From: Eledone cirrhosa
Taxonomy: Eukaryota
Length of the DNA: 64,000 nucleotides
Direction: 5' to 3'
NCBI GenBank assembly: GCA_964016885.1
Contig: OZ024750.1
Location: 22,506,001 to 22,570,000 of the forward strand
Below the pieces are notes generated by a model that was given only the letters and a program-made list of their open reading frames with translations, did no database searches and was not told where the DNA came from. Shown one piece after another: positions 14,875 through 45,371 of this stretch (positions within the stretch are counted from its first letter, which is position 1; the number at the start of each line of letters is the position of its first letter). The position numbers were made by a program, and so were the translations under genes.

Positions 14875-14945
14875 TATTTTATTATGCGCATTTCAAAAAC
14901 AAACATCATCAAACAATAATATTTGTGTTTTCATCAGATAAAACA
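14875..14945 (-). ncRNA. Type I hammerhead ribozyme
   Basis: Minus strand: TGTTTTAT-CTGATGA-(long stem II aaacacaaatattat/atgatgtttgttttt)-GAAA-TGCGCA-TA-ATAAAATA. Stem I is 8 bp, stem III is the palindrome ATGCGCAT, and the cleavage triplet is AUA. Confidence 0.75.
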
Positions 14946-15122
14946 GGAGAACATGATATGAAGGCTAAAAAAACACTTGTTGATAGTGCAGTTTTAAATC
15001 AACATATCTGCATTGCTTTATTGTACTACAATAAAACTCACCTCCTACATTTATATATATATATATATATATATATACGATATTAAACAAATGGAAACTA
15101 TTTATATTTATAAAACCATATT

Positions 15123-15188
15123 TATTTCGTTATATATATTTCTGGGATATCATATTAAAAATATGTTATGCCTTCCTCAGACAAAATA
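15123..15188 (-). ncRNA. Type I hammerhead ribozyme (inverted arm copy)
   Basis: Reverse complement of 15298-15363. Confidence 0.65.
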
Positions 15189-15297
15189 CAATACATAAGC
15201 TGTTTTATAAATAATTAGTGACATACCTTGTGATAATGCAACTTCCTTTTAAAAAGTTGATATGTCACTAATTATTTATAAAACAGCTTATGTATTG

Positions 15298-15363
15298 TAT
15301 TTTGTCTGAGGAAGGCATAACATATTTTTAATATGATATCCCAGAAATATATATAACGAAATA
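15298..15363 (+). ncRNA. Type I hammerhead ribozyme
   Basis: TATTTTGT-CTGAGGA-(agg...catatt ttt aatatg...cca)-GAAA-TATATA-TA-ACGAAATA. Stem I is 8 bp with one G-U pair, and the base of stem II is mismatched in this copy. Confidence 0.7.
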
Positions 15364-15598
15364 AATATGGTTTTATAAATATAAATATAGTTTCCATTTG
15401 TTTAATATCGTAAACCTACTCCAGAAACTGTTGAGTGCTTTTATATCAGTTATAAAATATTTACTCGTTGTAACCCAACAATCTTAAATAAAACTTTTGC
15501 ATATATATATATATATATATATATATATTTATATATATATATATATATATATATTAAAATATAAGTATTAATATAATAGATGTTCTTTTGATCAATTA

Positions 15599-15653
15599 CA
15601 TTTTATTATACATATTTCGAATGTACAACAGTACGTCCTCATCAGACAAAATA
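15599..15653 (-). ncRNA. Type I hammerhead ribozyme
   Basis: Minus strand: TATTTTGT-CTGATGA-GGAcGTAC tgtt GTACaTTC-GAAA-TATGTA-TA-ATAAAATG, preceded by CAGG|GTATGTC. Confidence 0.75.
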
Positions 15654-16782
15654 TAATGATACATGACATACCCTGAGATATTAAATGGTTAAGATTTAAT
15701 CAAGGTAGATATATATTAATACTTATATGTTAAGATTTAATCAAGGTAGATATATATTAATACTTATATATTAATACTTATATTTTAATATTAATAACTC
15801 CTGAAAATTATTTTCTGTTGAGTGCTTCCAATCTACTGTAAAACTCATTCTTTGACATAATCATCGAATATTGTTTAACAACTTAATACTTATATATATA
15901 TATATATATATATATATATATATATATATACTGTCCGCAAACAATGTATACATACTTCAACAGCATTCTAATAATTTTGTATACATTTTTGGGGACACCC
16001 TGTGCATATATATATATATATATATATATATATATATATATGTATATGTATATAGTGTCCGCAAAAAATGTATACACACTTCAACAGCATTCCGGCATTC
16101 TAATAAATATGTGTATATATTTTTGGAGGACACCCTGTGTGTGTGTTGTGTGTGTGTTTATATATATATATATATATATATATGCAATAAAGTTTATATA
16201 TACTGTATATATATGCAATAAAGTTTATATATACTGTATATATATATGTGTTTATATATATATATATATATATATATAGTGCCCGCAAAAAATGTATACA
16301 TACTTCAACAGCATTCTAATAATTATGTGTATATATTTTTTTGGGGGGAAACCCTGTATATATGAACAATAAAGAGACAAGTTTATATATACTGTATTTA
16401 TGTGTATATCATTATTACCGTTTAACATCTATTTCCCTGCATGCATGGGTCAGATCATCACGTTAATAGAATATCCACTAGTCAGGTGACCATGTCTTGC
16501 TCATCCGTTTTAGCCTCGTTTGGTTTCTATGGCTAGATGCCCTTCCAAATGCCGAAGGGTATCGGGAGGTGACCATAGTTAAAAAAAAAAAAAAGGTACT
16601 AATGCGTTCGCAAAGTATAGGTATTTTTATTTTATATAGAAATTACTTCTACAGGACTAGAACTAATTCATTCGTCTGGAATCATCAGGAATGTATGTAT
16701 GTATGTATGTATGTATGTATGTATGTATGTATGTATGTATGTATGTATGTATGTATGTATGTATGTATGTATGTATGTATTT

Positions 16783-17310
16783 AAGCACTATGTGTCGATA
16801 ATTGTCACAAGTGTAGTGTTTGTACCAGAGTTTTCAAGTCGCTGGCTGGACTAAAAAGTCACACTCGTTCAGCGCATCGGTAGGGGTTCTCCTACATGGA
16901 TATAAAGTAGTGGCCGTACTCGAAAACGAGTTGGCAGCCACCATGTATGTATGTATGTATGTATTTAAGCACTATGTGTCGATAATTGTCACAAGTGTAG
17001 TGTTTGTACCAGAGTTTTCAAGTCGCTGGCTGGACTAAAAAGTCACACTCGTTCAGCGCATCGGTAGGGGTTCTCCTACATGGATATAAAGTAGTGGCCG
17101 TACTCGAAAACGAGTTGGCAGCCACCATGTATGTATGTATGTATGTATTTAAGCACTATGTGTCGATAATTGTCACAAGTGTAGTGTTTGTACCAGAGTT
17201 TTCAAGTCGCTGGCTGGACTAAAAAGTCACACTCGTTCAGCGCATCGGTAGGGGTTCTCCTACATGGATATAAAGTAGTGGCCGTACTCGAAAACGAGTT
17301 GGCAGCCACC
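16783..17310 (+). mobile_element. Three tandem 184-bp copies of an RTE 3' end separated by (ATGT)n
   Basis: Period 184 (equivalent positions 16820, 17004, 17188). Same sequence as 9645-9804. Confidence 0.9.
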
Positions 17311-17884
17311 ATGTATGTATGTATGTATGTATGTATGTATGTATGTATGTATGTATGTATGTATGTATGTATGTTTGTATGTATGTATTATGCATGCATG
17401 TATGCGTGTATGAATGTATTATGCGTGCATGCATGTATGTATGTATATATATATATATATACACATATATATACATATCAGAATGAATGCGGTTAAAACG
17501 GTAGGCGCTCAGCGGCCGGGGTCCCGAATTTTTCATATATATATATATATATATATATATATATATATATATATATATATATTTCACTGCTTTATTTCTA
17601 TATCAACTATATTTTACAAAAATAAGTCATATACAATGATGGAATTAAATATATATATATATATATATGTTTATAACTGATTTAGAGCACTCAACAGACA
17701 CTGGAGTAAATATTCAAATTAATGTATAATTTTATTTATTTATTTATTTATTTATTTATTTATTTAATATCATTGAATATTTATTTTATATATATATATG
17801 TATATATATATATATATATATAGGAATATATATATATATATATATATATATATATATATATATATATATATATATATATATATA

Positions 17885-43960: not shown

Positions 43961-44006
43961 ACTCTAAACATGTTTCAGTATTATTATGACTTCATCAGAG
44001 CAATAT
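43961..44006 (-). ncRNA. Minimal hammerhead-like motif
   Basis: Minus strand CTGATGA-AGT cataataat ACT-GAAA-CATG-TT. Stem III is palindromic, stem I is weak, and the motif lies near (TA)n. Confidence 0.5.
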
Positions 44007-44599
44007 AGACTTCAACCGTACTTGTCGGAGTAATAACATGAAAATCCCTCAGTAAATGTACAAGATTATATATATATATATATATATATATATATATATA
44101 TATATATAGATACATAGGTTGGTGTAGAAAAATATAGAATTGTTTGGAGAATAAATAATTGAGAGGCGCCTTCCTTAATATAGTCACACACACACACATA
44201 CATACATACACACATACACACACACATGATATTATGATATGTGTTACATGTTTCTTGGTTGACTGGTTCACGAATTTCGCTGAACCATCGTTTAATTCAT
44301 CTACTCTGTTACAGACAGATTCACCTCCTCAGCAAATGTTTGTTGTTTTATATCTATAATTCTTCAACCCAGCATTGACATCCTCCTCCTCTCTCTCTCT
44401 CTCTCTCTCTCTCTCTCTCTCTCTCTCTCTATATATATATATATATATATATATATATATATATATATATATATATATATATATATATATATATATATAT
44501 ATATATATATAATGAATAATTTGAACAGGGACAGAACAGAGAGGCAGTACAATAAATGTTTATTAAATTCACGCTCAGGAGAGTGGGGGGTAGGTGGGG

Positions 44600-44634
44600 G
44601 ACGACGTTTCGGGCATAAGCCCTTCCTCAGGTGA
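44600..44634 (-). ncRNA. Minimal hammerhead ribozyme in a (TA)n-bounded module (44510-44715)
   Basis: Minus strand AC-CTGAGGA-A-GGGC ttat GCCC-GAAAC-GTC-GT, with AATAAA downstream and then (TA)n. Confidence 0.65.
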
Positions 44635-44708
44635 GAAGTGTGTGGGAACAGAGTTCATAGAAATACAATGTAAGAACACAGGCAAAGAATCTTATACGGA
44701 AAAAAAGG

Positions 44709-44998
44709 TACGGTAACACATATATATATACGGTAACATATATATATATATATATATATACGGTAACATATATATATATATATATATATATATATATATA
44801 TATATATATACGGTAACATATATATATATACAATATATATATATATACGGTAACATATATATATATATATACGGTAACATATATATATATATATATACGG
44901 TAACATATATATATATACAATATATATATATATATATACGGTAACATATATATATATATACGGTAACATATATATATATACAATATATATATATATAT
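44709..44998. repeat. (TA)n tract periodically interrupted by CGGTAACA
   Basis: About nine CGGTAACA(TA)n units of variable length. Confidence 0.9.
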
Positions 44999-45140
44999 GA
45001 CCAAAGGTTTAACAAGGTTCATTGATTAATCAATGAATACAGTTTTACAATAGATTAGAAGCACTCAACAGTGAGGTTTTCTGGAGTTATTAATATTACT
45101 TCAAAATATTAATAAATATAGACATTCATGTGATCAAATA

Positions 45141-45206
45141 TATTTTATTATATATATTTCAGAGGCACTGAGCTGTTTCATCAGTACGTCCTCATCAGAT
45201 AAAATA
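45141..45206 (-). ncRNA. Type I hammerhead ribozyme
   Basis: Near reverse complement of 45306-45371. Confidence 0.75.
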
Positions 45207-45305
45207 AGTTGATGTTTGACATACCCCAACTGTGCTGATGGTTCAATTCCAGTTTTGGCAGTGAATTGAACCATCAGCACAGTTGGGATATGTCAGACAT
45301 CAATT

Positions 45306-45371
45306 TATTTTATCTGATGAGGACGTACTGATGAAACAGCTCAGTACCTCTGAAATATATATAATAAAATA
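45306..45371 (+). ncRNA. Type I hammerhead ribozyme
   Basis: TATTTTAT-CTGATGA-GGAc-GTACTGA tgaaacagc TCAGTAC-cTCT-GAAA-TATATA-TA-ATAAAATA, with a perfect 8-bp stem I. Confidence 0.8.

Follow-up and report, generated by a model that had tools for sequence, protein, structure and literature searches.

A stretch of 64,000 nucleotides from Eledone cirrhosa (GenBank assembly GCA_964016885.1, contig OZ024750.1, positions 22,506,001 to 22,570,000), which we call the window, carries several hammerhead ribozyme motifs near (TA)n microsatellites. Which elements do these ribozymes belong to, and how do inverted pairs of them arise? A first-pass annotation, made from the sequence alone, had attributed them to many TA-targeted families of Penelope-like elements (PLEs) or to derivatives without an open reading frame (ORF). 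Based on their sequences, we are nearly certain that the four main families of the window, which we call A to D, are the ends of PLEs with Hydra motifs. We also found that their insertions almost always combine one short end with one long end.

Hammerhead folds and their parent elements

Searching the window with a strict descriptor for type I hammerheads (CUGANGA, stem II, GAAA, stem III, UH, and 4 bp or more in stem I), we found five, with coordinates as in the first-pass annotation. These far exceed what was seen in 100 block-wise dinucleotide shuffles, which had a mean of 0.17 folds at any score and none with a score of 10 or above. Five of the seven folds that had been described as well-formed thus have the full type I core (CUGANGA, GAAA, and UH, three helices, and an open stem I). 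The other two, at 15123-15188 (minus strand) and 15298-15363 (plus strand), have a broken closing pair in stem II, with A.A at 10.1-11.1. Even these keep CUGAGGA and GAAA, as had been claimed for the well-formed copies.

The seven folds count as just five insertions from four families, because 15123/15298 are the two arms of a single inverted repeat (127 nt, 100% identity), as are 45141/45306 (162 nt, 96% identity). Family A includes 45141 and 45306; family B includes 41360, 15123, and 15298; family C is represented by 15595 and family D by 14875. The folds had been placed inside the microsatellites, but they lie 40-150 nt from (TA)n, within element ends. About one motif per 5 kb, the frequency proposed earlier, is reached only when degenerate sites are counted as well: the strict density is 6 folds per 64 kb in the window, and our genome sample, taken as 10-kb stretches at forty evenly spaced positions, had 27 per 400 kb (score of at least 8). 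An Rfam scan of the window (E ≤ 1), which had been suggested as a check, gave no hammerhead model among the 150 of 199 matches listed; these were microsatellite-driven microRNA-type matches and one match to a pestivirus untranslated region (UTR).

In longer genomic copies, all four families join upstream to a PLE ORF with a reverse transcriptase (RT) and, at the C terminus, a GIY-YIG endonuclease. Upstream of each fold is a 3' UTR of ~1.0-1.4 kb and then this ORF, and downstream is the 5' UTR of the next unit. (Locus labels such as L194 refer to stretches elsewhere in the genome, except that L127 and L003 cover parts of the window.) For family D, L194 has an intact frame of 821 codons from stop to stop, or 800 amino acids from the methionine that matches the published start; L192 also links family D to its ORF. 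The order of RT and then GIY-YIG is seen in family D (L194) and is the same in families A and B. A complete copy of family B at L147 comprises an inverted pseudo-long-terminal repeat (pLTR), a 5' pLTR, the ORF, and a 3' pLTR. The pLTR-to-pLTR period is 3,774 nt in L147 and 3,334 nt in L192. Family A has a 3' UTR of ~1.3 kb with GIY-YIG upstream on the same strand and RT further upstream (L038, L057, and L058). For family C, ORF pieces are in line with the fold at L151, but these are fragmentary. So, the expectation of TA-targeted PLEs with an upstream RT and GIY-YIG ORF was borne out for families A, B, and D, with fragments for family C.

Among them, the proteins of these families show the motifs RRLRW, SDKTNN, ITMG(S/A)SDS, YRDD, CxCX5C, CxxC, and CxH. 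RRLRW and SDKTNN are present in A, B, and D and were not seen in the fragments of C. The third residue of RWx is R, T, or I, not K, and DKT replaces DKG. All four families have CNC-x5-CP and CxLC; A, C, and D have CLH or CHH; and, judging by eye, CCHH is absent. This agrees with the Hydra clade as defined in section 11 of Craig et al. 2021 (PMC8557442): RWK-like, DKT, CxCX5C, CxxC, CxH, and no CCHH. We had labeled the endonuclease of family A as Neptune but dropped this for Hydra, following that definition. Naiad elements have an N-terminal endonuclease and no canonical hammerhead, whereas the endonuclease of A-D is C-terminal and a hammerhead is present. A homology search gave 559 homologs, many with PF26215; the best named one is from Argonauta hians.

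Earlier work already describes Hydra elements that carry hammerheads and insert in (TA)n, including Hydra-1_Obim from Octopus bimaculoides (PMC8557442). Families A-D resemble these in having a single ORF with RT and C-terminal GIY-YIG, the RWx, DKT, CxCX5C, CxxC, and CxH motifs, a hammerhead near the 3' end, a (TA)n target, and inverted and tandem structures with a tail. On the other hand, the hammerhead listed for Hydra-1_Obim in the supplement does not match A-D. Also, A-D have units of 3.3-3.9 kb rather than generally under 3 kb, tails of 89-103 nt rather than 30-40 nt, a long stem II in which pair 4 is a fixed 1x1 mismatch, and copies in the tens of thousands. On these sequence features, A-D are a single related Hydra-clade lineage, present as 5'-truncated ends of autonomous elements, and not a set of unrelated families. 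They are new families of a known kind; what is new here is their scale and the strict pairing of their ends.

A pattern for this lineage (stem I, core, and stem III) had 35,983 + 35,690 = 71,673 exact matches in the genome, while the reversed control had 0; stem II is not part of the pattern, and the count may include haplotype duplicates. In similar pattern searches, a 29-mer from family D had 11,783 matches and a 25-mer from its 5' UTR had 223. In the genome sample, there were 27 folds with a score of at least 8 and 0 in 20 shuffles. Eleven of the 27 belong to one 310-nt tandem array, and the remaining 16 imply, as a rough figure, ~10^5 dispersed folds genome-wide. (TA)5 lies within 300 nt downstream of 15 of these 16 dispersed folds, as compared to 25% of background positions; the first-pass annotation had proposed to check for such an enrichment next to (TA)n. 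The axolotl genome is far larger. It contains ~120,000 type I hammerheads, which is the largest count that we met (PMC7229834). The tandem array (L081:281-3381, at G000:C3:190.00 Mb, minus strand) has at least 11 units of 310 nt and ends at a gap of Ns. Each unit has a well-formed type I hammerhead with ACGCGU as stem III, and the array looks like a non-LTR retrozyme.

Could the folds be chance products of AT-rich DNA, or fold-back artefacts of the assembly? The stems are AT-rich, and one inverted pair has arms that are 100% identical over 127 nt. But the shuffles gave no folds at scores of at least 10 (window) or at least 8 (genome sample), the reversed pattern had no matches, and the arms differ from each other in a consistent manner (one short end and one long end, as described below). 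These controls refute this explanation, and we give it virtually no weight. Another explanation is that the short modules are independent ORF-less retrozymes or similar to short interspersed elements (SINEs). Most copies are indeed short, the 310-nt hammerhead array exists, and we did not find parent ORFs for two families of minimal hammerheads, E and F (in 1.5-kb flanks of 20 loci per family). For families A-D, the 5' ends vary continuously into the ORF and there is no fixed short unit, which refutes it; we consider it very improbable overall. ORF-less derivatives are also unnecessary because A-D connect to the ORFs of autonomous elements. Similarly, non-LTR retrozymes (PMC7229834; bioRxiv 10.64898/2026.07.22.740005) resemble A-D in that their type I hammerheads are very numerous, but these sources describe ORF-less tandem units, while A-D are dispersed, ORF-linked, truncated ends.

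One more PLE, family N (L012-L022 and L040), is abundant, with 3,032 first-look candidates. It has its own hammerhead and a 56-nt tail. Its protein has a CxxC linker and a GIY-YIG domain with further Cys and His, and it is probably Neptune-like. At L002:600-1620, a family N insertion (an inverted long-tail arm and a GIY-YIG piece) is followed immediately by family A's 3' UTR and hammerhead. We rejected this GIY-YIG piece as the parent of family A because it belongs to family N, as a chimeric neighbor. A template switch between PLE families could possibly explain the chimera.

Short and long ends

Downstream of the ribozyme, copies of A-D meet (TA)n at either of two junctions: a short end (S), 38-47 nt after stem I, or a long end (L), 89-103 nt further. 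S directly precedes an ACUCC...GAGUG segment that is common to the families, and in all four of them S falls in TA-like sequence. The tail between S and L is the start of the 5' UTR of the next unit in tandem copies (L192). Insertions are tail-out: the minus-strand 3' end is on the left and the plus-strand 3' end is on the right.

Among the divergent end pairs in A-D, 55 of 56 had one S and one L, where pairs were counted only if both ends were inside the fetched stretch and were caught by our probes. The same was true of 26/26 further family D insertions, which were chosen by their 5' UTR, and of 8/8 insertions of family N, which is a non-Hydra PLE with its own spacing. Combining these, 89/90 tail-out insertions had one S and one L, so the pairing is near-absolute across five families and two types of PLE. 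The full-length arm can be either the S arm or the L arm.

The rule includes insertions with a single hammerhead, whose second arm is tail only. In the window, a family D insertion at 14840-15048 (L127 781-989) lies between TA/CA tracts. Its left, minus arm has the hammerhead (14875-14945, minus strand, with AUGCGCAU as stem III and found with the descriptor) and S, and its right, plus arm has just the last part of the long tail. The parent of this family is the element with the intact 800-amino-acid ORF. The family C insertion at 15555-15890 (L127 1496-1831) likewise has S on the left and the long tail on the right; its hammerhead (15595-15657, minus strand) has a stem I of 12 bp. The family B insertion at roughly 15078-15500 is inverted and tail-out, with S on the left and the long tail on the right, and contains the inverted twins 15123-15188 and 15298-15363. 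Another family B hammerhead (41360-41425, minus strand) has a short end into (TA)n. The family A insertion at 45000-45415 (L003 1201-1616) is also inverted and tail-out, with the long tail on the left and S on the right: hammerhead 45141-45206 (minus strand) is on the long-tail arm and 45306-45371 (plus strand) is on the short-end arm. All of these hammerheads outside the 15123/15298 pair were found with the strict descriptor.

We think it probable that A-D represent pLTR fragments, namely 3' ends that carry the hammerhead, from four related Hydra-clade PLE families and that their paired ends come from priming on two strands. The process that we favor, with about the same confidence, is twin priming, in which both nicked target strands would prime reverse transcription at two internal sites in the RNA. 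The endonuclease would nick both strands of the self-complementary (TA)n. One 3'-OH would prime at S, just 5' of the ACUCC...GAGUG segment, and the other at L, ~90-100 nt further 3'. Both cDNAs would run back across the hammerhead junction, and joining of their 3' ends would give an inverted duplication of variable length. All copies cross the hammerhead junction, so the template would have been uncleaved or re-ligated there. The ribozyme is likely to work weakly, as a dimer, or with the help of a protein, and it is probably dispensable for the insertion step.

A precedent is the PAc Poseidon element of Anolis (Frangieh et al. 2024, PMC11167929). According to that report, each of the two target strands is cut and extended, the tail is bounded by two internal sites where RT starts, and a dimer is predicted. 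The hammerhead needs protein and is dispensable for insertion, which hammerhead mutants left unaffected. Like A-D, PAc has two defined ends that bound a tail 3' of the hammerhead, an AT-rich target, and copies with an intact hammerhead junction. It differs in belonging to another clade, and the putative start sites of A-D lie within the 5' UTR, where the sequence is TA-like. Also, the report calls the tail optional, and the part that we consulted does not say that an insertion has one site per end.

The 5' ends of family D arms give another view of the template. Among 80 arms that reach the 5' UTR, none end within 3 nt of the cleavage site. Instead, the ends cluster near S and L one unit upstream (10/34 arms in the test set versus 2.55 expected, p = 1.4e-4; arms longer than 480 nt were set aside). 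The same clustering was seen in 6/17 arms of the discovery set that defined the windows for this test. These unit-length stops would fit a template that is circular, or one that is a linear read-through RNA on which protein acts as a roadblock.

Two other accounts of the ends need to be weighed. In one, the template is hammerhead-cleaved RNA that was re-ligated into a circle, and RT starts at S or L, goes around, and often stalls when it reaches a start site after one unit. This was proposed in PMC4209133, is compatible with twin priming, and would account for stops at S and L with none at the cleavage site. Furthermore, all six arms that stop at -110 to -112 and have a readable end of their own start at S, and a seventh, at -123, was inferred to do so. 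However, stops at the L site occur in arms of both types (5 L and 3 S); a linear read-through RNA with protein bound to its upstream pLTR could give similar stops, as could TA microhomology; the numbers are small; and hammerhead mutants had no effect on insertion in PMC11167929. As a full explanation we consider the circular template unlikely. We are equally doubtful that S is made when the endonuclease cuts the TA-like site of the element as the intermediate is resolved, with no second priming. PMC8557442 ascribes the tail to such resolution, the endonuclease of D. virilis requires the tail for recognition (PMC11167929), and a cut at the TA-like sequence in which S lies in all four families would also yield one S and one L. 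But in vitro, the tail is the interval between two RT start sites (PMC11167929). Also, at each end there is the 3' end of a long antisense copy that joins (TA)n, and the full-length arm can be on either side.

Returning to twin priming in Hydra-clade elements, several points weigh against it or against the evidence for it. One S/S pair was found, at L197. An earlier, cruder classifier gave 38 S/L, 2 L/L, and 1 S/S among 41 classifiable pairs, with 4 unclassified; one of the L/L pairs is an internal pLTR. Loci for A-C were picked by similarity to queries that reach S, so L/L pairs are undersampled in their tally, but the family D sets are free of this bias. Rows were picked by means of the ACUC/GAGU segment, which does not vary, so its pairing is putative. 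Minimum free energy (MFE) and cofold predictions on the bare motifs, as monomer and dimer, did not return the hammerhead fold. (MFE folding is unreliable for hammerheads.) The 5 ORF fragments and the 800-amino-acid ORF had no significant Pfam matches, and the Hydra assignment was made by motifs and not from a tree. Finally, the proposed steps of the mechanism are drawn from genomic patterns and from in vitro data for another clade, and PMC11167929 reports no difference in start site between strands.

More tentatively, and with somewhat less than even confidence, we propose that twin internal priming is obligate and is carried out by a dimeric ribonucleoprotein, with one fixed RNA start site per nicked (TA)n strand, possibly on circular RNA made by the hammerhead. 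This would explain the inverted pLTRs, the one-sided tail, and the unit-length stops, and the genome would be among the densest in hammerheads so far reported (~10^5 in 3 Gb). If so, this genome holds an intact young element that is suited to testing the model.

We found no published account of A-D, of their numbers, or of the strict S/L pairing, although older work on Penelope, which was largely outside our search, may state it. PMC8557442 names how PLE integration makes inverted repeats and tails as a next task, and the S/L rule bears on this. Near-absolute across five families of two PLE types, the rule limits which models are possible and predicts exactly where reverse transcription would start, and the intact ORF and thousands of near-identical ends of family D make the integration model testable.

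Ribozyme anatomy

The main seven folds have a stem I of 8-12 bp and a stem II of 20-36 nt, so they are not minimal hammerheads. Among 17 diverse natural copies, 8 of 9 pairs in stem II are altered on both sides, and 95% of cells are paired (36-59% in slid controls). This covariation agrees with the earlier claim that stem II differs between families and still pairs. Across 95 distinct sequences of stem II, pairing is 92-99% at pairs 1-3 and 5-7 and only 1% at pair 4, which is mostly C.C or C.U. A tertiary contact may involve this conserved mismatch. Stem I was also said to vary while keeping its pairing; it does pair, but the variation is mostly G.U wobble, and a single pair is altered on both sides. 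Invariance of stem I and the core in the 17-copy set is not evidence, because the selection pattern fixed both.

The 8 nt of stem III are palindromic or nearly so, as had been noticed, and give 2 bp in a monomer. This geometry fits dimer activation as described for minimal hammerheads in PMC4209133, where activity was low; cleavage of the window's folds as dimers seems plausible. The subfamily of B with the A.A closing pair has a 31-mer with 1,136 exact matches genome-wide and is tied to an ORF at L198, which suggests that it spread with a weakened ribozyme. The 71,673 matches, all from one lineage and with more than 1,100 copies of this subfamily among them, are a large natural set of hammerhead variants.

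The minimal PLE hammerheads described by Cervera and De la Pena 2014 (PMC4209133) are also type I, with a palindromic stem III, mostly in truncated PLEs, and with opposite-strand pairs 100-700 bp apart. A-D differ in having longer stems, no extra base, and often A-U or G.U instead of G-C at 10.1-11.1: G-C is found at pair 1 of stem II in just 11 of the 95 distinct sequences.

Secondary sites and other repeats

Of six secondary sites in the first-pass annotation, three are minimal-type and three are degenerate. The sites at 5933, 36313, and 44601 fit the minimal hammerheads of PMC4209133, with an extra base after A9 and a G-C closing pair. The first (5933-5968, minus strand) has a C3U change and belongs to family E, which is mostly intact elsewhere in the genome. 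The second (36313-36347, plus strand) was found with a relaxed descriptor, has an extra A and AAUU as stem III, and is 121 nt ahead of (TA)n. The third (44601-44632, minus strand) is a core from family F with ACGU as stem III and a weak stem I of 2 bp. So 5933 and 44601 are minimal-type members of repeat families.

As for the degenerate sites, 43961 lacks a paired stem I, and 16650 is a degenerate member of a different repeat family. This repeat (16610-16690) is ~81-86% identical to L161, L101, L062, and L292, has a hammerhead-like core, and usually folds back exactly at the core, so that stem I lacks its 5' arm. The hammerhead core at 60060 is broken. It lies in a tail-out inverted insertion (59870-60180) that adjoins (TA)n and has the long/short asymmetry, which may represent a PLE family whose ribozyme has decayed or is a variant.

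A Penelope-like expansion has been reported in O. vulgaris (PMC13282606), and the main text of bioRxiv 10.64898/2026.07.22.740005 does not contain the word "octopus". Our analysis turned up no host gene within the window. Two plus-strand frames, at 19205-19723 and 46318-46809, resemble by eye the C-terminal parts of RTE-type long interspersed element (LINE) proteins. At 15890-16360, there are three related units of ~100 nt, each flanked by TA runs, forming a TA-targeted short repeat. An abundant SINE-like repeat of ~200 nt (45445-45650 and 1424-2161) also occurs in tandem, with periods of 192 and 91 nt, and often adjoins hammerhead insertions. The window also contains minisatellites at 12095-14157 (38-nt period, 54.5 copies, 96%), 16759-17332 (184 nt, 3.1 copies, 100%), and 21015-21479 (51 nt, 9.1 copies).

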